Virus record (IMG/VR): IMGVR_UViG_3300045988_155182
Direction: 5' to 3' (one strand)
Length of the DNA: 64,000 nucleotides
From: a virus
Taxonomy: Duplodnaviria > Heunggongvirae > Uroviricota > Caudoviricetes
The position numbers were made by a program, and so were the translations under genes. A model generated the notes under the pieces. The model saw only the letters and a list, made by a program, of their open reading frames with translations. It ran no database searches and was not told the DNA's origin. The stretch's first letter is position 1, and the number at the start of each line of letters is the position of its first letter. Below, piece after piece: positions 10,089-36,311 of the stretch.

Positions 10089-10670
10089 ATGGACTTCACA
10101 ATGAGTGAACAACCACGGACCATAAAAATTTATAATCTGTTGGCCGGAACCAATGAATTTATTGGTGAAGGTGATGCATATATTCCACCTCATACGGGGC
10201 TGCCAGCTTATTCTACGGATATAGCGCCACCGGATGTACCTGCTGGCTTCGTGGCCGTATTCAACAGCGAAAATAAATCATGGAGTCTCGTTGAAGACCA
10301 CAGGGGTAAAACGGTCTATGACGTGGAATCAGGGGACGCGTTGTTTATTTCTGAACTTGGGCCATTACCGGAAAATGTCACCTGGTTATCACCGGATGGG
10401 GAATATCAGAAGTGGGACGGCACATCCTGGGAGAAGGATGAGGAAACAGAAAAATTGTTTCAGGTACGGGAAGCGGAAGAAACAAAAAAAAGTCTGATGC
10501 AGGTAGCCAGCGAGCACATTGCGCCACTTCAGGATGCTGTAGATTTGGAGATTGCAACGGAGGAAGAAGCATCGTTGCTGACTGCATGGAAGAAGTATAG
10601 AGTTTTATTGAACCGCATTGACACATCAACGGCACCGGATATTGACTGGCCAACAATACCAGCAGAGTAA
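10089..10670 (+). CDS. tfa: Tail fibre assembly protein (lambda Tfa-like)
   Basis: AGAGG RBS 6 nt upstream of the ATG. Sequence [35 protein letters not shown]...[21 protein letters not shown] matches lambda Tfa as I recall it. Confidence 0.9.
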
Positions 10671-22696: not shown

Positions 22697-22908
22697 TCGT
22701 ATTAAGTAAAAGGGAGAAAGAAACGCTTCATGAAATCAGTAAGTGGCCGGAGTTCCCTGAGTACTGGAAGCCTAAAACGCGAGCTAAGTTAGAGCGTTTA
22801 GGGTTGGTTGCAAACGTTTCTGAAACGTGGTGCTCGGCCAACTACCAGTTAACTGATAAAGGGAAAGTATTGCTACAGCAATTAGTAGAATCAGGAGTGT
22901 TAAAATGA
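22693..22908 (+). CDS. Hypothetical small protein
   Basis: ATGA-coupled to the ligase stop. Confidence 0.4.
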   Translation: MIVLSKREKETLHEISKWPEFPEYWKPKTRAKLERLGLVANVSETWCSANYQLTDKGKVLLQQLVESGVLK

Positions 22909-23057
22909 TTCCATACATCTCATTAGCTTTTATGGGTGGCTTCCTTGTCGGCTTCGGCATCTGTCGTGATTTAATTAAGCAGGAACTTAAAACCAAAACA
23001 CTGTGCATCGGAAAGCGTGTGTATCGGGTAGTTCATGAAACAAAGGTTAGAAAATGA
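22905..23057 (+). CDS. Hypothetical small membrane protein (50 aa)
   Basis: Not in the ORF track (under 60 aa). ATGA-coupled at both ends; hydrophobic core LAFMGGFLVGFGI. Confidence 0.35.
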   Translation: MIPYISLAFMGGFLVGFGICRDLIKQELKTKTLCIGKRVYRVVHETKVRK

Positions 23058-23344
23058 GCAATTTAACTTCTTGGGACTGGTGGTTGGCCACCTATTTCTT
23101 AGCGGCCGGAGTCGCATTCGCCTTTTACGTAGGTCAGTTAGTCGTAAAACTGCTGCTGATTAAATTTGCCAGTCATAAACGTATCGATGATGGTCTGTGG
23201 CGTCTTGGCACCCTGGTGGAAACTCGCTACGGGCAACTTAAGGAGAACGAAACCATTACTATCCAAGCGAAACGATTCACTGCCACCATCACAAGAACAC
23301 CTAGTCGTAGAGTGGCCTTGATCAAAAAAGTCACAACCGAATAA
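23054..23344 (+). CDS. Hypothetical membrane protein
   Basis: N-terminal hydrophobic helix WDWWLATYFLAAGVAFAFYV. Confidence 0.45.
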   Translation: MSNLTSWDWWLATYFLAAGVAFAFYVGQLVVKLLLIKFASHKRIDDGLWRLGTLVETRYGQLKENETITIQAKRFTATITRTPSRRVALIKKVTTE

Positions 23345-24122
23345 AATTACAATGATAAGTATTTACTTACTTATCTTTTATGTATAAGATGACTTTGTTT
23401 TCGTTGAGACGCGACTGTTTGAACTTAAATACAAGTGCAAACGAAGAAGTCTATCTGGCAGTAGCCTAATAAGCCAAACACCAGCGAGGTCAGTTTCCAG
23501 CCTCGTTACCGAAATGGGATACACTGAGCGAGTGTGATTACAGAACGCAGGAGGGAACATGAATGTTCCCTCCGATGAAGTAACAGAATGGGCGGTTGGT
23601 ATATTTTCAACTCCATATGACTCCCGGATTCTTAGCCACTGACCGCCCATCCTGTTACGTCATTTTGTTCAATTATGTCGTTTATACTGGGTTAAAAAGC
23701 GGCGACGTAGCCCGGCTGGTATGGTTAGCCAGCACACAACGTTGAGGCCATTACATTTTTATCAATTCTAAGGTTCTATTCACAGAGATACCGGCGAGCG
23801 TTGATATGTAACATGTTGGGCAAACATTCAATCGGAGTAGTGGCCTCAACGTTGTGAAGACAGGATTGTTGTGTAGGTTTAACCACTGTTGCCATTGGTG
23901 CCTGTTTTCACAACAAATGATTCCATACATCACATTGTATAAATTACAAAGTAGGTGCTGTCCTCAGAAACATCATCTACTTAAAGAGTTTGCCTTCTAC
24001 TATTGAGCGAAGTCGAAAGCGTCTGGCACTAACGAAAAGTGCAAGTAGCGGTGCGTTTCCTGGCAGAAACTAAACCGTCGCGATTGGCACTGTTGAGTAA
24101 TGAATACAGGCAGTGCTGAATT

Positions 24123-24197
24123 GATGGTGTAGCTCAGCGGTAGAGCAGTTGGCTGTTAACCAACTGGTCGGTGGTTCGAATCCACCCACCATCGCCA
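24123..24197 (+). tRNA. tRNA-Asn (anticodon GTT)
   Basis: Cloverleaf folded by hand: acceptor gatggtg/caccatc, D-arm gctc-agcggtag-gagc, anticodon loop ctGTTaa, T-arm ggtgg-ttcgaat-ccacc, 3' CCA encoded. Confidence 0.85.
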
Positions 24198-24199
24198 AT

Positions 24200-24275
24200 G
24201 CCGGTTTAGCTCAGTTGGTAGAGCGCCTGCCTTGTAAGCAGGATGTCAGCGGTTCGAGTCCGTTAACCGGCACCA
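24200..24275 (+). tRNA. tRNA-Thr (anticodon TGT)
   Basis: Acceptor gccggtt/aaccggc, anticodon stem cctgc/gcagg with loop ctTGTaa, T-loop ttcgagt, CCA encoded; 2 nt after tRNA-Asn. Confidence 0.85.
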
Positions 24276-24499
24276 ATACAACGATAAGATCATTACGGTT
24301 AATCGTCGTTCATGTGCACAATGACTGGTCGAAAGGTAGTGATCTTACCGTTGTGGTGGATTCGCAGACTGATGCGATAGCTTTCTTGGATGTTAGGGAA
24401 ATGCGGCCGCAAATCTTCCCTTTCGCGAGCGGTGATCGTCCGTAGTCCTAATTGGCTGCACCGTATGCCGGAGATTCAGTACCGGCCACCACAACGGCC

Positions 24500-24586
24500 G
24501 GAGAGTAGGGAGCATGGTGCTCAAGCGGTCTTGAAAACCGTCCCATTGCGCAAGCGATGATGGTTCGATTCCATTACTCTCCGCCA
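24500..24586 (+). tRNA. tRNA-Ser (anticodon TGA), class II with long variable arm
   Basis: Acceptor ggagagt/actctcc, anticodon stem gcggt/accgt with loop cttGAaa read as UGA, long variable arm, T-arm gatgg-ttcgatt-ccatt, CCA encoded. Confidence 0.7.
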
Positions 24587-24740
24587 GACACAGCGTTGAG
24601 CGGTTTGGCCTTTTAATCAACTCGATTAAGACTCCGCTAACATAAACCAGACCGCTCAACGCTGTGATAGACAATTACGGCAGACGTTCTTAACCATAGC
24701 TTGCTAACATCCTAGCAACACTTTTTTAAGCGCAAAATCC

Positions 24741-24763
24741 AAAGGGGCTTCGGCCCCTTTTTT
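24741..24763. terminator. Bidirectional rho-independent terminator (UUCG tetraloop)
   Basis: ggggc-ttcg-gcccc followed by tttttt on the plus strand; T-rich on the minus strand as well. Lies between the tRNA cluster and the convergent minus-strand ORF. Confidence 0.8.
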
Positions 24764-24764
24764 G

Positions 24765-25673
24765 TTAATGATTGCCTAGATATGATTTTAGTTCTTCTTT
24801 AATGATTAGTGAGTATTCTAAAATATCACTTAGTAAAAATTTTGCTCTGTTAAAATACCCACCAAAAGAACCTAAAATTTCAGATGGTCTTTCTAAGAGC
24901 ATCACAATATCATCTTCTTGCACTTTAGTAATGTAACTTCTAACAGCTCTTTCTCCAATAACTCTTTTCTTACCGTTTATTTCAGATTCATCTAAAACCT
25001 TATTTATAAATTTTTCTGTATCATTGAATCGTCCACTATTGTGTACTATTGTATGTCTTAGTAGTTCAATTAGCTTGATGTTAAAGCGATAGTTTTTGCC
25101 AATCTTGTTGTTTGTTTCTATCTCTTTGAAGCCAGGTATTTTATTTCTGAAAATTTTAGTTATTTTTTTCGATGGGTTACTTTTTGCTTTTAATAATCTG
25201 TAATAAACTTCCCTTTTCCCAATTTCATCATCTTCAACCTTACCAAAATCACTTGAGGACCATAAATCATTTCGAACACATACAGTATAGACATATATTG
25301 CCTCAATATAGTCTTCCAGTAACTCATAGGCTTCAGTAATAACCCACTGATATTGTTTATTTTTCAAAGTATTACACAATCTTATCTTTTCTTCTAAATC
25401 AATGGCGCTGTTACCTATCTCTAATGTTGAACCTGTATATGGGTTTGAACATAAATGGCGAGCTAACGTTGTGCCACACTTAATCTTAATAGTTTCATTA
25501 ATATTAATAATAGTATCTGGATTCTGTGCATACTCCACTTCTTTAAGAAGACGTTTTATATTTTTCTTTGTTGTATCATTTATCTGATTTAAATAGTCAA
25601 AAAGTAAAGATATTTCTTCTCTAAATTCGTTGTATTTATTTTCAATCAAAGAATCAGACAACTTACCAATCAT
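24765..25673 (-). CDS. A+T-rich hypothetical protein with HEPN-type Rx4H motif (candidate abortive-infection RNase)
   Basis: 302-aa ORF with A+T-rich codon usage unlike its neighbours; motif LLRHTIVHNSG (R-x4-H) in the C-terminal half; isolated between terminator and tRNAs. Confidence 0.5.
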   Translation of the reverse strand: MIGKLSDSLIENKYNEFREEISLLFDYLNQINDTTKKNIKRLLKEVEYAQNPDTIININETIKIKCGTTLARHLCSNPYTGSTLEIGNSAIDLEEKIRLCNTLKNKQYQWVITEAYELLEDYIEAIYVYTVCVRNDLWSSSDFGKVEDDEIGKREVYYRLLKAKSNPSKKITKIFRNKIPGFKEIETNNKIGKNYRFNIKLIELLRHTIVHNSGRFNDTEKFINKVLDESEINGKKRVIGERAVRSYITKVQEDDIVMLLERPSEILGSFGGYFNRAKFLLSDILEYSLIIKEELKSYLGNH

Positions 25674-25846
25674 TAAAACCTCTATAAAATGTACATTTCA
25701 AGGCAATCCTTACTGTAATCTATTGTCGTAATCACTTCAATTGTTTACTAGTCAATCAATAAGTTACTACATACTTATCAAAAAAATCTGTTTGTAGTAT
25801 AGTCTGATATGTTCGAATCAATATTTATAAAGGTATTTGTTAAGTT

Positions 25847-26092
25847 ATGACGATCACTATCTACGGACGAGATAACTGCTCATACTGCAAACGTGCGGTC
25901 GAGCTGGCGAAGCAACTAAAGGGACATGGCTACGGTGATTATGAGTACATCGACATCACCACTGCCGGTATCGACAAGGAAAAACTAAGTGAAATTGTTG
26001 GTAAACCGGTAGAGACTATCCCCCAGGTGCTGATCGATGGCCAGCCGATTGGCGGATACACAGAACTGGCTGCATACGTCAGCACCCTCTGA
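25847..26092 (+). CDS. Glutaredoxin (NrdC/NrdH-like redoxin)
   Basis: Active site CSYC near the N-terminus; TIPQVLIDGQPIGGYTEL motif; 81 aa. Confidence 0.85.
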   Translation: MTITIYGRDNCSYCKRAVELAKQLKGHGYGDYEYIDITTAGIDKEKLSEIVGKPVETIPQVLIDGQPIGGYTELAAYVSTL

Positions 26093-26171
26093 TTTTAACG
26101 GCTCACAGGAGCCGTTTTTATTCCCACCAAACTCACTCCCATTTCCCTTAAAATTCAAAAAACAACGTCAA

Positions 26172-26204
26172 AATGATTCCATACCTACTATGTATGGAAT
26201 CATT
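26172..26204. other. lox/dif-like recombination site candidate: 13-bp perfect inverted repeats around a 7-bp spacer
   Basis: aatgattccatac-ctactat-gtatggaatcatt, about 100 bp upstream of the tyrosine recombinase gene; half-site copies at 22904-22916 and 23916-23928. Confidence 0.5.
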
Positions 26205-26302
26205 GCTGAAAATGAGTTACTTTTACTCTTGATCCTATAAGAATCTATGCCTAATATACTGTTTACTTATACAGTGCATCGGCGTAACTCGGTGATTGTC
26301 AT

Positions 26303-27406
26303 ATGAAAAATAGCTTTGACAGAGCACGCGCTGCGGAGAACACCTCAAAAGAGGCGATAGAGTATCTCGAAAGAGCATCTCAAATGCAGGCCGTTATGAT
26401 CTCCCAGGTCAGCAATGACATGAGATTCTCGGACGCATTCATGTTATTCACTCGCTTATCTCTGCTGATAACCAGACGTCGGCCAGAGATCGCTGTTCAT
26501 TGTATTTTGATACATGTTTTGCCGCACATTGCCGATGTAAAAGTAAGTGACATTAATAGGTTCATGGTGAACCAACTGGTCAACCCACTAATACTGGATG
26601 GCAAAATTGTTATGGGCCGCCGCGTTTTCTCTCTGATGAAGCAGTTCCTTAGCTGGTGCGCCTTCCAGGGGATGATAGACGTGTCACCGTTGAACGATAT
26701 GTCACTTAACAAAGTTGCCGGTGGCGCAAAGCCCACACCTCGCGAGCGGAAGCTGACCGACGCAGAGGTATGGGTGTTCTGGAATATATGGGACTACTTC
26801 AATGTGTGTGCTGGTACAAAATGGGCGGCCAGGCTATGTCTTGTATCCGCAAGACGACCTGACGAAGTACTGCGGGCTAAAAAAAGTGAGTTCAATCTTA
26901 AGCGTGGGGTTTGGAATCAAGGCAAGAGGAACAAATCTGCCCGTGAGCATTCTCTGCCTTTAAGCTCATTAATGCGCACTTGTATTGAAGAGTTGTTCGA
27001 ATATGGTAAAGACAGCCAGTGGCTCGTGCCTTCGAATAAAAAAATCGGGAAAGACCTTCCTATGTCTAAAGTGGCAATAGCCCAGGCATTACGTCGTATT
27101 CTGGAACGACCAGAACTGATGGAGCTTGAGCCATTTACACCCCGAGATTTGCGCCGTACTGCGCGTAGTTACTTCCCAGCATTAGGCATAAGCCAGGAGG
27201 TATCACGTAAAATCATGAACCACAGTCTTGAGGGGATAGATCGGGTCTACGACCGGCACGATTATATGGACGAGATGCGAGACGCCTTAGAAAGTTTCTC
27301 GACGTACATCGCATCAATCGTAGAGCAACCGGATTTAGACGAAATTGACCACAAATTTAAGGGAGATCGTCTATCAACAGAGCTTATTCGTGTAAATTTT
27401 TCATAG
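26303..27406 (+). CDS. Tyrosine recombinase / integrase
   Basis: C-terminal catalytic region with RDLRRTARSY and HSLEGIDRVYDRHDY (H-x-x-R...Y pattern); start codon uncertain. Confidence 0.7.
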   Translation: MKNSFDRARAAENTSKEAIEYLERASQMQAVMISQVSNDMRFSDAFMLFTRLSLLITRRRPEIAVHCILIHVLPHIADVKVSDINRFMVNQLVNPLILDGKIVMGRRVFSLMKQFLSWCAFQGMIDVSPLNDMSLNKVAGGAKPTPRERKLTDAEVWVFWNIWDYFNVCAGTKWAARLCLVSARRPDEVLRAKKSEFNLKRGVWNQGKRNKSAREHSLPLSSLMRTCIEELFEYGKDSQWLVPSNKKIGKDLPMSKVAIAQALRRILERPELMELEPFTPRDLRRTARSYFPALGISQEVSRKIMNHSLEGIDRVYDRHDYMDEMRDALESFSTYIASIVEQPDLDEIDHKFKGDRLSTELIRVNFS

Positions 27407-27787
27407 AGACTTTATGGCCTCAACAACCTTTTGTGATGCGCCTTTCTCTTTACCGAATCGCTCGTTATATGCAGCAAGAACCTGTTTTTCGTCCTCGTTA
27501 AGAGGAGCAGTGCCTTCTTTGTATAAAAATGCTGCGAGTTCGGGTTGGCGTTCTTCCAGCACCATCATCATAAGACGACTTGGCTCAATGCCCAGTGCCA
27601 GCGCCAGCGGACGAACCTTATCGATAGGCAAAGGAATTTTGCCGCTTTTAATTAAAGAAAGGTTGTTGGCGTTTTTATACCCAATTGTTTTGGCTATCTG
27701 GGCCTGGCTCATAGGTGAGGATTCAATCAACCCTGCGATAAAAGCAGCGTAGCGACTTTCTATAAATTCAATCTTGTTATCAGACAT
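27401..27787 (-). CDS. XRE-family HTH transcriptional regulator (repressor-like)
   Basis: HTH SQAQIAKTIGYKNANNLSLIKSGK; convergent with the recombinase, divergent from the downstream block. Confidence 0.6.
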   Translation of the reverse strand: MSDNKIEFIESRYAAFIAGLIESSPMSQAQIAKTIGYKNANNLSLIKSGKIPLPIDKVRPLALALGIEPSRLMMMVLEERQPELAAFLYKEGTAPLNEDEKQVLAAYNERFGKEKGASQKVVEAIKSL

Positions 27788-28038
27788 GGTTACAACCTTT
27801 GCGCGTTCAATTCTCTCTGGTAAGTGCTTACCGATATTACATCAAAGGTTAGGGTTGTAAAGCTATTATCATTTTTTTCGATAGGCACTTAAAAGACCGG
27901 TTAAAGGCCATTGCACGGAGAAAAATTAGCCCAAAACAGGTAAGAAAATCAACTTGCATATGATATGAATGTATTCAGTATTGATACAAATTTTAGTAGT
28001 ATTCCTTACCATAGTATAAGTTAGAATGGATTGATTGA

Positions 28039-28251
28039 ATGAACACCACTATTTCCAGCCTAATCGCTCTTGAGATCGGACACGTACAGAAATTAGCTGA
28101 TGAGTGTGTAGCTGACATCCTCACCGATCTACCGAATGAGCAGATTCAGGTTGGTGTGAATGACACAACTGGATTTATATTCGAACTTAACAACAAACGC
28201 TTCACGCTTCTCAATACCGGCTCCGGGTCTTTAGCCGTCAGAATCTGTTAA
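28039..28251 (+). CDS. Hypothetical small protein
   Basis: 70-aa ORF divergent from the XRE regulator. Confidence 0.35.
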   Translation: MNTTISSLIALEIGHVQKLADECVADILTDLPNEQIQVGVNDTTGFIFELNNKRFTLLNTGSGSLAVRIC

Positions 28252-31969: not shown

Positions 31970-34900
31970 ATGAAGGCACTGATGGTTCGAACTGACTTCT
32001 CACTTGGGGAGTCGGCTCTAAAAGCAGAAAACGCGGTGAAGATTGCCAGAGAAGCTGGCTACACCGCTGTAATTTCAGCAGATAGCATGAATATTGCAAG
32101 TGTTATTCCACTACAACGTGCCGCTGGTGACGACATGGCGGTTATTTGTGGTGTGAAACTAAACATTGTTGATGATCCCACATACGAGCACCGGGCTAAA
32201 CTTGCTAAAGAATCTATGAGATGTATGGAATCATTAGAGCGGGGACGTAACTACTCGTTTACCGCTCTAATTAAAAATGAGCAAGGATATCGCGACATCT
32301 GCGAACTAATGACGGCGGCCAACACACGAGAACAGTTCTACTTTGTACCGCGTCTCTCGCTCGAACAGTTGGTTTCTACATATGCCAAAGGCAACATCAT
32401 CCTGCTTACTTCCGACATCGGTAGCGTGTTCCAACGCAACGATTTTGCAAAAATCATAAGCACACTGATTACAGCGGGTGGAAAAGACAACTTCTATAGT
32501 GTGGTTTATCCGCATCCTACCCCATTCTACGACCAGATTAACGTCCGGGCGATGAAAGTCGCCAGCGCATTGAAAATAGAGCCAGTGGCGTTCTATCCCG
32601 CTTATTACGAATCGATCGACGATGCAGACATTAAAGACATTGCGCACATGGTTACGAACAACATCAAAATCGACCAGCCGCATCGTCTGCGTATCCCCCA
32701 CCAGCGAGATAACGCCGTCAATGGTCGCCGCCATCTCCTTGAGGCGCTTAAAGCCTTCTCCGTTCGCATGGATGTGCCGGTAACAGCTGCAATGGCCTCA
32801 ACAACGCAGGATACCATTATCGATGCCTGCACATGGCGCTGGCATGAATTGCCGCCAGCACTGCCAAAGATGGCAGACGACGAGCCTGCAACGCTTATGA
32901 AACTGGCTGTTGCAGGGCTGCGTAAACGTCTTACCACAAAAGAGTTTGGATACACACCACCTGCTTCAGAGAACAGGGTTTATGTTGAGCGGCTAAAGTA
33001 CGAAATGGACACGCTGACTCGCCTGGGATTTTGTGGTTACTTCCTGATGGTACGCGATCTGATGAATCATAGTCGTGAAACTGGCATTCCCGTTGGGCCT
33101 GGTCGTGGTTCCTCTGCCGGTTCTCTGGTGGCGTGGTGCATAGGCATAACCAACGTCGACCCAATCCGTCACGGTCTTCTGTTTGAGCGTTTCATCAACC
33201 CTGAGCGTCTCGACTTGCCGGATGCGGACTTGGACTTCAGCCAGGCACGTCGCCATGAGGTGATCGAGTATCTGAATGAACGCTACGGCGAAGATTACGT
33301 TGCGGGTATTCCGAACTTCACCTACCTGGGCGCAGCCTCTGCACTACGTGATACCGCTCGTATTTATGGTGTGGAGTCCGCAGATATGGCGGTATCAAAA
33401 GAACTGAAGAACGCTGAGGATGATAGCCTTCCATTGGAAGAACTGCGCGAACAACTGGCAAGTCTCGACAAATACGCAACAAAATATCCTGATGCATTCA
33501 ATGCAGCCTGCAAGTTACAAAGCCTTATGCGTGGCTTTGGTAGACATGCGGCAGGGATGATCGTAGCAGGTGTTCCTCTGACAGAACGTACACCGGTTGA
33601 GCGCCGTGGTGACGCGCGTTGTATCGCATTTGACAAGCGTTACTGCGAGGCTATGGGCCTAATTAAGCTGGACGTGCTTGGCCTGGCAACTCTCGATTTG
33701 CTCGATAGTGCAAAACGCTACATAAAAGAGAACACAGGTGAAGATATCAATCTTGATGCCATTTCTCTTGAAGATCGCAAGGTGCTGGATGGTTTTGCTG
33801 CTGGGTACACTCAAGGTGTTTTCCAGCTTGAATCAGGCCCAATGCGCAAGCTGCTTAAAGATTTAGGTGGTGGAATTGAGCCAATGAGCTTTAAAACGGT
33901 CGTCGCTACAACTGCGCTCTTCCGGCCGGGGCCAATTCAATCAGGCATGTTGGATGACTATGTTTCTGTCGCCAAAGGCTTTATGACGCCGGAATCATTA
34001 CACCCCGTTCTTGATGAACTTACCGCGGAAACAAATGGCGTGATTCTCTATCAGGAACAGACGATGAACGCGACTCGATTGCTTGCCGGCTTCACAATGG
34101 CTGAAGCTGACGCTGTGCGTTCCGCAATCGGTAAGAAGAACATGGAAAAAATGAAGAGCATGGGCGAGAAGTTCATCGTTCAGGCTCAAGCTGGCTGGAT
34201 AGACGTTGAGCTGGAAGATGGCACTACACAGCGCATTCACCGTGCGGAACATTTTAAATGCGAAGACGGAACTCTGAAAACTGTCGAAGAGGCACTTGAG
34301 CACGGCGCAAAACTACCTATAAACGCAGTACGCGTTACAGCGTCACATCCAGGGCTATCAGAGATGAAAGCGAAGGAGATCTGGACCGCATTTGAGAAAA
34401 ACGGAGCCTATCAGTTCAATAAATCACACTCCGTTGCTTATTCTTTAATCAGTTATCAGTCTATGTGGCTAAAGACGCACTACCCTGCTGAGTTCTTCGC
34501 AGCTGCGCTCACCATTCTGGGCGAGGATAAGCATCAGGGGCTGGTGAAGGATGCGCTGACCTATGGCATTCGCGTATTGCCACCAGACGTTAATGTGTCA
34601 TCTAACCGAATTGAGATCCGCACACTCGAAGACGGCAGTCAGGCACTGTATGCGCCATTCTCTGCTGTGAAAGGCTGTTCTGAAAATGGTTGTCAGGCAA
34701 TTATGCGTGCGCGTGAGAAAGTTGGTGGCAAATTCGAGTCAGTGGCACAATTCGATGAAGCGGTCGAGAAGCGTGCATGTAACAGTCGTGTACGCGAGTC
34801 GCTTCATAAAGTAGGGGCTTTTGCGTCAATTGAGCCAGGCAGTCTGCCAGCAACTGATCCTGAACGACTGCGCGACCAGGCTGAGCTGATGGGCAATCTC

Positions 34901-35516: not shown

Positions 35517-35791
35517 ATAAAGAATTATGGCGCTTGTTGAGGAAGTCACTCCTCTTACGCACTTTGTTTTGCCATGCCGGCAGTTAGCTTCTGCCTTTGA
35601 CTATTCATGCGGCAACCCCGCATTTCGCCACAATGGGCAATTCACTTTTATGGAATAAACTGGCCGTTGTGTCGATTTAATTAGCATGGCCTTACCATGC
35701 TAATTTATTCAACTTGTACAATCCTACAAATCTATCCACTCAGGCTTACACCGTCTTCGTTATTGTAGAAATGAGGATCATCAGCGTTGAA

Positions 35792-36007
35792 TCAGCTTAG
35801 AGCAACGACATTTGCTGCTGCTGGGCCTTTAGCACCATTCTCGATAGAGAATTCGACCTGCTGGCCTTCTTCCAAAGTGCGGAAATTATTACTCTGAATT
35901 GCCGAAAAATGTACAAAAACATCTTTACTGCCATCAGCAGGAGAAATAAAGCCAAAGCCTTTATCAGAGTTAAACCATTTTACTAAACCAGTCATTTTAT
36001 TAGACAT
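35792..36007 (-). CDS. cspA: Cold-shock protein (CspA family)
   Basis: [38 protein letters not shown]... closely matches E. coli CspA from memory; AAGG RBS; the track start at 36103 is an upstream in-frame extension. Confidence 0.9.
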
Positions 36008-36311
36008 AGATATTACCTTCTTAATTTTGTGAGCCACATAGTGCGGCGAGAATTTGATCTGTATAGATTGGGACTTACTTAGGCACTTAAGGAGGAGACT
36101 CACGAAGAAGGGAAATCAGAAGATAACACTGAACTGAGACTGCTTTACTAAAACTGCTTACATAAGGTCTGTCTTGCAAACCAACGATGCTATTAACGCA
36201 TACCCCTTCTTTTCATGCAACCTTTATTTTTCAAAGATAACTAATTTTTGTCACCATTGGTTTAGTAAACGTTAACGAACCAGACGATGCCAGACACCTT
36301 TACAGAGAACA

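Follow-up and report, generated by a model that had tools for sequence, protein, structure and literature searches.

A probable lox-like core site with conserved, inward-facing half-sites beside the tyrosine recombinase of SSU5-like phage-plasmids

The described system closest in plan to the one reported here is Cre/loxP of the plasmid prophage P1, in which a single tyrosine recombinase gene stands beside two 13-bp inverted arms with a short asymmetric spacer, arm-type sites are lacking, and the recombinase converts multimers of the plasmid prophage to monomers. Integrases of the lambda and P4 type, acting at integrative attP sites, form a second point of comparison; the overlap region of the lambda COC' core site is 7 bp. 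Extra direct copies of the arm motif beside an inverted-pair core are known from element c of FRT, from DR1 and DR2 of the TnpI IRS and from crs of the Salmonella virulence plasmids, and in the Rci/sfx shufflon the sites have one conserved arm and a 7-bp spacer. According to the summary of Karaboja et al. 2021 in PMC11840125, XerD of Bacillus subtilis binds dif-like XDS sites around dif and unloads SMC complexes. Here we set beside these systems a locus in a 64,000-nucleotide stretch of viral DNA (IMG/VR record IMGVR_UViG_3300045988_155182; the whole stretch is called the window), which comes from an SSU5-like phage-plasmid and has, in the region treated here, 98% identity to Escherichia phage CMS-2020a and to the phage-plasmid Cyrano (pLF82). 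Salmonella phage SSU5 itself has 79% identity to the window over part of the region only. The locus consists of a 33-bp palindrome, the gene for a tyrosine recombinase (Int, gene int) to its right, and dispersed single copies of the palindrome arm, which we call half-sites.

We consider it likely that the palindrome is the cognate core site of Int, serving most likely in multimer resolution, and that the single copies form a 15-bp unit under selection and are not scars. Judged by comparison of sequences, the palindrome is very probably a lox-like site, not described before, of a distinct clade of lambda/P4-type recombinases that lack the arm-binding domain and are carried by plasmids and phage-plasmids of Enterobacterales; a literature search found no paper containing or describing the motif or the site. 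With its two naturally occurring specificities, a recombinase site so defined might be put to use as a new lox-like tool, orthogonal to those in hand. The elements at and around the palindrome are the following.

26150-26163, no strand: A-tract element AAAATTCAAAAAAC, in the left flank of the palindrome, recurring beside otherwise unrelated cargo
26172-26204, no strand: core site, AATGATTCCATAC-CTACTAT-GTATGGAATCATT, made of a 13-bp arm, a 7-bp spacer (26185-26191) and a 13-bp inverted arm
26229-26257, + strand: putative int promoter (TTGATC, 17 nt, TAATAT), read from the sequence
26257-26275, no strand: LexA-box-like TACTGT-N8-ACAGT, overlapping the -10 and start region of the int promoter
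26303-27406, + strand: tyrosine recombinase Int, 367 amino acids (aa), with core-binding and catalytic domains and without the N-terminal arm-binding domain

An earlier note on this DNA had described perfectly matched inverted arms of 13 bp, separated by a 7-bp spacer, about 100 bp upstream of a recombinase gene, and the sequence bears this out, the gap to the start of the open reading frame (ORF) at 26303 being 98 bp; the exact copies of the 13-mer that it placed at 22904 (+) and 23916 (+) were also found. The 12-mer core of the arm, ATGATTCCATAC, has five exact matches in the window against 0.01 expected, and none of 100 shuffles gave five or more. Two of these five are the palindrome arms, and copies with one or two mismatches are absent from the window. 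The fifth, which had been overlooked, lies at 32223-32235 (-) inside the gene for the alpha subunit of DNA polymerase III (Pol III alpha). The same five copies are the only ones in the whole Cyrano genome (108 kb), all within 9.3 kb.

The evidence that carries our reading is the association of palindrome and integrase across relatives. The sample comprised 71 IMG/VR loci encoding Int homologues, mostly 82-100% identical with outliers at 56% (locus L077) and 27% (L079), together with Klebsiella and E. coli phage-plasmid records and contigs of Int homologues 43-60% identical from Nissabacter, Xenorhabdus, Providencia, Photorhabdus, Erwinia, Pantoea and Rahnella. A palindrome stands upstream of int in 83 of 83 sites, and in all 83 the spacer is 7 bp. 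It lies ~100-130 bp from the gene in every IMG/VR locus except L079 and L073, the latter with a 5'-truncated int, and the distance is 20-130 bp over all SSU5-like loci and all seven more distant homologues fetched. The arms, perfect over 13 bp in the window, are 11-14 bp long in all relatives and essentially unchanged across the SSU5-like loci: integrases 56-100% identical keep the TGATTCCATAC arms, including those of Nissabacter (59-60%) and L077 (56%). At 43-50% identity of Int, in Xenorhabdus, Providencia, Erwinia, Pantoea and Rahnella, the site is TGACTCCAGAC-N7-GTCTGGAGTCA (12-7-12), and the TGACTCCAGAC arms differ from the TGATTCCATAC arms by two substitutions, mirrored in both arms; the arms of the Photorhabdus locus are intermediate between the two kinds. 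On the Erwinia, Pantoea (507-kb replicon) and Rahnella plasmids, int and the palindrome lie among ordinary plasmid genes, without the helix-turn-helix (HTH) gene and orf70 described below and without the SSU5 backbone. Since the site stays with int on plasmids that have neither repressor nor phage backbone, we conclude that it tracks the integrase and neither of these.

The spacer varies in sequence by lineage (CTACTAT, CTATTAA, TTGTAAG, TTGGTAG and others), and when normalised for orientation it has a conserved asymmetry, NTNNTAG, in both arm clades, with three of seven positions conserved. Its orientation relative to int varies between sites, as is expected where only the relative orientation of two site copies would matter; a dimer operator would not behave in this way. 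The locus has the features of a simple core site of the lox, FRT or dif type, namely inverted arms of ~11-13 bp, an asymmetric spacer of fixed length in the range of 6-8 bp, and a specificity that tracks the recombinase.

Two smaller observations concern the site and its flanks. In the phage-plasmid PhiR41_1 (L080) the spacer is reverse-complemented relative to L040 (ATAGTAG versus CTACTAT) between flanks that are identical on both sides, and a second lineage (L070) shows the same flip. Such flips could be recombinase-mediated or could come from hairpin-mediated template switching, and because the latter could give the same outcome we did not count them as proof of recombination. A AGATTTCAAAAAA-like A-tract recurs 9-25 bp left of the palindrome at homologous positions, and on the other side the right arm runs into AAAA; at both places the DNA may be bent or bound by an accessory factor.

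Against Pfam, Int matches PF00589 (E = 2.9e-10, 40.6 bits, cutoff 27.1) and, weakly, the core-binding family PF22022. Of the catalytic residues, R185, R284 and Y316 never vary among 44 sequences, and K211 and H307 hardly do. The nearest relatives in sequence are P4-type integrases (25-32% identity); the arm-binding domain PF13356, present in the P4-like relatives P0114-P0120, is absent from Int. The AlphaFold model of Int (pLDDT 86) finds its best match in the PDB in residues 75-356 of lambda Int on the COC' core site, and Foldseek gives a probability of 1.0 to lambda Int, Xer, Tn1549 Int and IntI. Cre is a weak structural match (rank 34, E = 0.014), and phmmer with Int found no match among PDB sequences. 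Two domains, a simple site with inverted arms and an overlap of 7 bp make up the predicted anatomy, which is that of a standard simple site-specific recombination system.

Int is thus closest to P4-like integrases in sequence and to lambda Int in structure, and it shares the 7-bp overlap with the latter's COC'; unlike the lambda and P4 systems, it has neither PF13356 nor arm-type sites, its site has long, perfectly symmetric arms, and the element has never been found integrated. In plan the locus resembles Cre/loxP: a single recombinase gene beside two 13-bp inverted arms and a short asymmetric spacer, a plasmid prophage as host, no arm-type sites, and multimer resolution as the likely role. 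It differs in having no detectable sequence relation to Cre, a spacer of 7 bp against the 8 bp of loxP, and unrelated arms, and also in the dispersed conserved half-sites, which P1 is not known to have, and in the LexA-type box on the int promoter. With no PDB sequence match, Cre at rank 34 and a 7-bp spacer, we rejected membership of the Cre/loxP family proper.

The distribution of the element bears on the role of Int. The module is carried by 252 of 5,426 complete E. coli genomes, and all 255 of its places there are on plasmids, none on a chromosome; the 37-nt site taken alone likewise has no chromosomal copy in these genomes and occurs only on those plasmids. An element that exists as a plasmid and in no other form most likely needs Int for multimer resolution, which we favour over integration. 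The earlier note had proposed a lox-like site for either purpose. Linkage, co-variation of the arms and the fixed spacer uphold a cognate site of the adjacent recombinase, and resolution is favoured; the integration half of the proposal falls, the site being found on no chromosome of these genomes. In the mechanism we propose, two Int monomers would bind the two 12-13-bp arms and two such sites would synapse; strand exchange would then proceed across the 7-bp overlap with a polarity set by the NTNNTAG asymmetry, and Int would in this way convert multimers of the plasmid prophage to monomers, as Cre/loxP does in P1.

The putative int promoter is conserved between the E. coli and Klebsiella lineages and falls below the threshold of a consensus scan. 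The TACTGT-N8-ACAGT that overlaps it is the sole such box in the window, and CTGT-N8-ACAG lies 55-57 bp past the palindrome in 70 of the 83 sites, with 13 different N8 sequences. Conserved ends around a variable N8 are the footprint expected of a LexA operator, and with its conserved ends, free centre and overlap with the promoter the element has the look of a LexA (SOS) box. Int is probably SOS-inducible, which would link the promoter of the recombinase to the SOS response. Such control would suit an enzyme required to resolve multimers once recombinational repair has taken place, but is just as compatible with a role in prophage induction.

Besides the palindrome, the arm occurs at the following places.

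22905-22919, + strand: s1, ATGATTCCATAC-ATC, overlapping the stop of a 71-aa ORF; a 50-aa ORF takes its start codon and its MIPYI codons (the first five) from this site
23917-23931, + strand: s2, ATGATTCCATAC-ATC, intergenic, with a long hairpin directly on its 5' side and tRNA-Asn ~190 bp downstream
26909-26921, - strand: degenerate copy inside int, at the VWNQ codons, with 3 mismatches in the window
32220-32234, - strand: s5, inside the Pol III alpha gene, codons 84-88 (CMESL)

The single copies take the form of a 15-nt block, ATGATTCCATAC-ATC, that holds ~2 bits per position across 97 unique contexts, with flanks at ~0 bits. It had been noted earlier that the arm recurs with three or four further nucleotides; the copies are real, and the shared ATC belongs to the single copies only, the palindrome arms running into CTA and ATA. 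At s2 the block is a conserved island within an intergenic alignment of 65% identity. At three places (s1, s5 and the copy in int) the motif sits in coding sequence. The Pol III alpha loop at s5 reads CMESL in every genome with the motif and DAPAP, ELLPI or TQLPV in those without it (L077, Xenorhabdus, Providencia), and the codon before s5 is always NGA (Arg or Gly), so that ATC is kept on the other strand; from this we conclude that the DNA constrains the protein at s5 and not the reverse. Lineages whose Int is ~86% identical, as well as L077, have a near-perfect site followed by ATC at the same position in int, over the VWNQ codons.

In genomes as far apart as those of Nissabacter and E. coli (Int 60-100% identical) the half-sites occupy homologous positions, independently of the cargo carried, and SSU5, from which the whole integrase module is missing, still has them. 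All of them face the palindrome, on the + strand when to its left and on the - strand when to its right, with no exception. In PhiR41_1 (L080 22067-22334) the ligase gene is truncated beside a fragment of a mobile element, and the region of s1, s2 and the tRNA genes has been replaced by other cargo; the replaced region still holds one single site facing the palindrome.

Recombination between half-sites is unlikely, because they have no second arm and no shared spacer and no rearranged genome is found. We also rejected an exchange of modules at the half-sites: identity profiles against eight mosaic relatives put the breakpoints elsewhere (in L045, ~470 bp before s5), and the half-sites do not coincide with mosaic breakpoints between lineages. 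Single Int monomers, we infer, would bind the half-sites without recombining them. Our best guess is that these are auxiliary, non-recombining Int-binding sites, comparable to XDS, that would help to order or control the ~9-kb region of lysogeny and replication, or would keep Int concentrated close to the core site; we rank such a role first and one at the level of RNA as a minor rival. As in the XerD/XDS system, copies identical to the recombinase arm are scattered around the full site, where they might be occupied by the recombinase; XDS there act on the scale of a chromosome and with a host enzyme, whereas the half-sites lie within ~9 kb of a phage-plasmid, all point inward, and in three cases fall inside genes. 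The accessory repeats of FRT, the TnpI IRS and crs lie tens to hundreds of bp from the core and on one side of it, in contrast to the 0.7-6 kb and both sides found here. Together with the SOS box, the conserved and oriented half-sites set this system apart from ordinary members of its kind.

A more specific proposal, which we put forward tentatively and regard as less probable than its negation by some distance, is that the half-sites form a second layer of the recombinase system, of a kind not known before, in which SOS-induced Int monomers would sit at s1, s2 and the int and pol sites without recombining them and would there block passage in one direction as a polar barrier, loop the DNA or unload other complexes. 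If so, DNA damage would, through this layer, influence whether the element is maintained as a plasmid or enters lytic replication, or else the layer would shield the lysogeny/replication region from its surroundings, and it would be the phage-plasmid counterpart of XerD/XDS.

Several points weigh against the account given so far. The case for recombination, for binding and for a role in multimer resolution is comparative throughout, and among the genomes compared none has a deletion or inversion ending at two sites. The His of the HxxR box is Arg in Int (R281), as it is in one P4-like relative, and catalytic competence is assumed. SOS induction is unusual for an enzyme of pure multimer resolution, and Int may have some other task when the prophage is induced. 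The inward orientation of the half-sites comes from ~5 independent positions, for which the two-sided chance is ~0.06. We take Int to be what binds the half-sites purely from their identity to the arms, and the ATC extension, which is not found beside the palindrome arms, may mean that half-sites are read differently. Finally, half-sites are absent within 10 kb of the loci with TGACTCCAGAC arms, including those of Xenorhabdus and Providencia, which have the same order of genes from int to the polymerase; this absence indicates that the half-sites are an elaboration of the SSU5 clade and not essential to the basic system.

Of the other explanations for the palindrome, the one that fares best, though we think it unlikely, makes the site a platform for gene capture or module exchange at which Int joins replicons, in the manner of an integron and including SOS control. 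LexA boxes on recombinase promoters are known from integrons, and this we counted in its favour. Hypervariable DNA adjoins the palindrome on its left: the cargo that separates it from the tRNA genes differs widely, and s2 and the palindrome are ~1.2 to 5 kb apart. Homology with many plasmids sets in at 26170-26172 or no more than ~25 bp from the left arm, and with many relatives at the left arm or at an A-tract ~10-25 bp away from it. Both exchange between replicons at the site and selection that simply begins there would give this sharp left edge, and we keep exchange as a secondary possibility. Its difficulties are that the cargo between the tRNA genes and the palindrome holds no further full or half-sites that would flank its genes, that breakpoints inside the cargo (window versus Cyrano) are not at sites, and that the conserved A-tract left of the arm stands beside unrelated cargo, which puts many junctions outside the site. 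An integron in the strict sense, with cassettes bounded by attC-type sites next to attI, was rejected, the cargo holding no further full or half-sites.

A transcriptional explanation is distinctly less probable. In it the motif is the operator of a regulator, either the 128-aa HTH protein or the 71-aa protein whose gene ends at s1, the palindrome being bound by a dimer and the single copies serving as monomer operators. Dispersed asymmetric operators are known for C1 of P1, which counts for this view. So do the constant presence of the HTH gene with int in SSU5-like genomes and the place of the palindrome, which relative to the int promoter falls at about -60 to -92. HTH gene and int there form a conserved int-rep-orf70 module with a third gene.

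27401-27787, - strand: 128-aa HTH protein, a putative prophage repressor, convergent with int with a 6-bp overlap (27401-27406)
28039-28251, + strand: 70-aa ORF (orf70), divergent from the HTH gene, third member of the module

The observations that decide against an operator concern what the motif follows when these genes change. On the plasmids of Erwinia, Pantoea and Rahnella, which have no HTH gene, int still has the palindrome upstream of it; the arms co-vary with Int, and they remain unchanged where identity of the HTH protein has dropped to 46-70%. Of the three single sites of the window two lie inside genes, and a conserved asymmetric spacer is unexpected of a dimer operator. The divergent promoter region between the HTH gene and orf70, moreover, has no copy of the motif and has GGTAAG-N2-CTTACC instead. 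We therefore rejected a repressor operator, the site travelling with int where the HTH gene is missing and having no copy in the HTH promoter region.

Some further details of the repressor module may be given here. The homologue of the HTH protein in Cyrano, CYRAN_45, has been treated as a master repressor (PMC9928086). A palindrome GGTAAG-TG-CTTACC lies at 27819-27832 in the divergent region, with more GGTAAG/CTTACC at ~27939 and ~28005; GGTAAG-N2-CTTACC is a candidate HTH operator, unrelated to the recombinase motif. A terminator-like hairpin is found on the + strand at 27627-27643, inside the HTH gene. Transcription of int driven by SOS could interfere with expression of the repressor.

Action at the level of RNA seems to us no more probable than an operator. 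The palindrome would then be a hairpin, and the + strand RNAs of s1 and s2 would be complementary to the pol mRNA (and in some lineages to that of int), as a small RNA is to its target. The palindrome does fold with z = -7; the structured non-coding region, in which s2 follows directly on a long hairpin, probably gives processed RNAs together with the tRNAs, and in the window the pol mRNA is complementary to the s1 RNA over 20 nt. That complementarity, however, does not co-vary between lineages beyond the 15-mer, the palindrome lies upstream of the int promoter with no T-run after it, and arms that track the integrase on unrelated plasmids would be left unexplained.

That the palindrome is an attP, through which Int would integrate the phage-plasmid into the chromosome or another replicon, is more doubtful still, even though the gene is annotated 'integrase' and its nearest sequence relatives are P4-type integrases. 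None of the 255 E. coli places is chromosomal, and neither is any copy of the site; Int has no arm-binding N-terminal domain, no arm-type repeats lie nearby, and the site is a perfect palindrome without similarity to a tRNA gene. A chromosomal attP was rejected on the plasmid-only distribution, and an integrative attP of the lambda or P4 type because both the arm-binding domain with its sites and any integrated copy or attB are missing.

Least credible is the idea of the earlier note that the single copies are non-functional pseudo-sites or scars of Int-mediated insertions, relics of the acquisition of a tRNA/HEPN/glutaredoxin block that they bracket: they do share the arm sequence, but the 15-nt block is perfectly conserved in ~97 contexts, an island in variable DNA whose flanks change, it holds homologous backbone positions from Nissabacter to E. 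coli whatever the cargo, it is embedded in coding sequence where it constrains the protein, and it does not bracket the block, s1 and s2 both lying to the left.

Other known arrangements were also tried. The shufflon was rejected, because the sequence after ATC differs between sites and lineages and gene order is the same in all loci, with no inversion in the genomes examined; sfx spacers are identical and drive inversions, unlike the spacers here, which are conserved at three of seven positions. A shufflon-like inversion or a matching of spacers between s1 and s5 fails in the same way, the 20-nt identity of the window not being kept in other lineages. A protelomerase with a telRL site of the N15 type was rejected because the palindrome is internal in all contigs and the related records are circular, and a signal for origin or terminus because the GC skew has no turning point near the palindrome.

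SSU5 departs from the other genomes at this locus. Compared with L051 (6084-11940), its record (L005 12634-12643) has lost everything from the cargo and the palindrome through int and the candidate repressor gene (HTH) to most of orf70, and the junction shows a 10-bp overlap that looks like a microhomology deletion. The same int-less junction occurs in no other phage record and in none of 585 SSU5-like plasmid records, which match the DNA that surrounds the tRNA-Asn and cobT genes of SSU5 in this region. From its sequence SSU5 reads as a deletion mutant without the integrase-repressor module, and it may be a repressor-less derivative of a phage-plasmid. As a control without int for decay of the half-sites it proved uninformative, being the sole record with its junction, a deletion across a 10-bp overlap.

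Phage-plasmids of the SSU5 type are common in Enterobacterales, as the 252 complete E. coli genomes that carry one attest, and they also carry resistance genes; their maintenance and induction have hardly been studied. The order of genes around the palindrome in the window is as follows.

Left of the palindrome: DNA ligase, 71-aa ORF, 50-aa ORF, 96-aa ORF, ~780 bp of structured non-coding DNA
Next, up to the palindrome: tRNA-Asn, tRNA-Thr, tRNA-Ser, 302-aa ORF (-), glutaredoxin
Right of the palindrome: tyrosine recombinase, convergent 128-aa HTH protein, divergent 70-aa ORF, CobT-like protein, CobS-like protein, Pol III alpha

The 302-aa ORF (24765-25673, -) matches only a PHROG of unknown function; Pfam, NCBIfam and PADLOC gave no hit that would bear out its earlier label as HEPN. 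Just five related loci have the ORF at 99-100% identity, and L038 has it at 56%, a patchy occurrence that marks it as variable cargo. Long hairpins lie around the tRNA genes (23575-23663, 23735-23856, 23851-23914, 24273-24359 and 24589-24666), with arms of 14-24 nt that are 83-95% complementary, several of them sharing CACAACGTTGAGG-like or CACAGCGTTGAGCGG-like arms; s2 begins right after one of them. A search of this non-coding region against Rfam gave nothing but the tRNAs, and the hairpins may be signals for RNA processing or small RNAs. Elsewhere in the window, Rfam matches above the gathering score are IS009 at 10432-10630 (+) and the cspA thermoregulator 5' UTR at 35767-36185 (-), the latter implying a cold-shock-type gene on the phage-plasmid. 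In the Xenorhabdus phage-plasmid (L082 14481-16802) the CobS-like AAA_5 gene contains a LAGLIDADG_3 domain, which suggests an intein.

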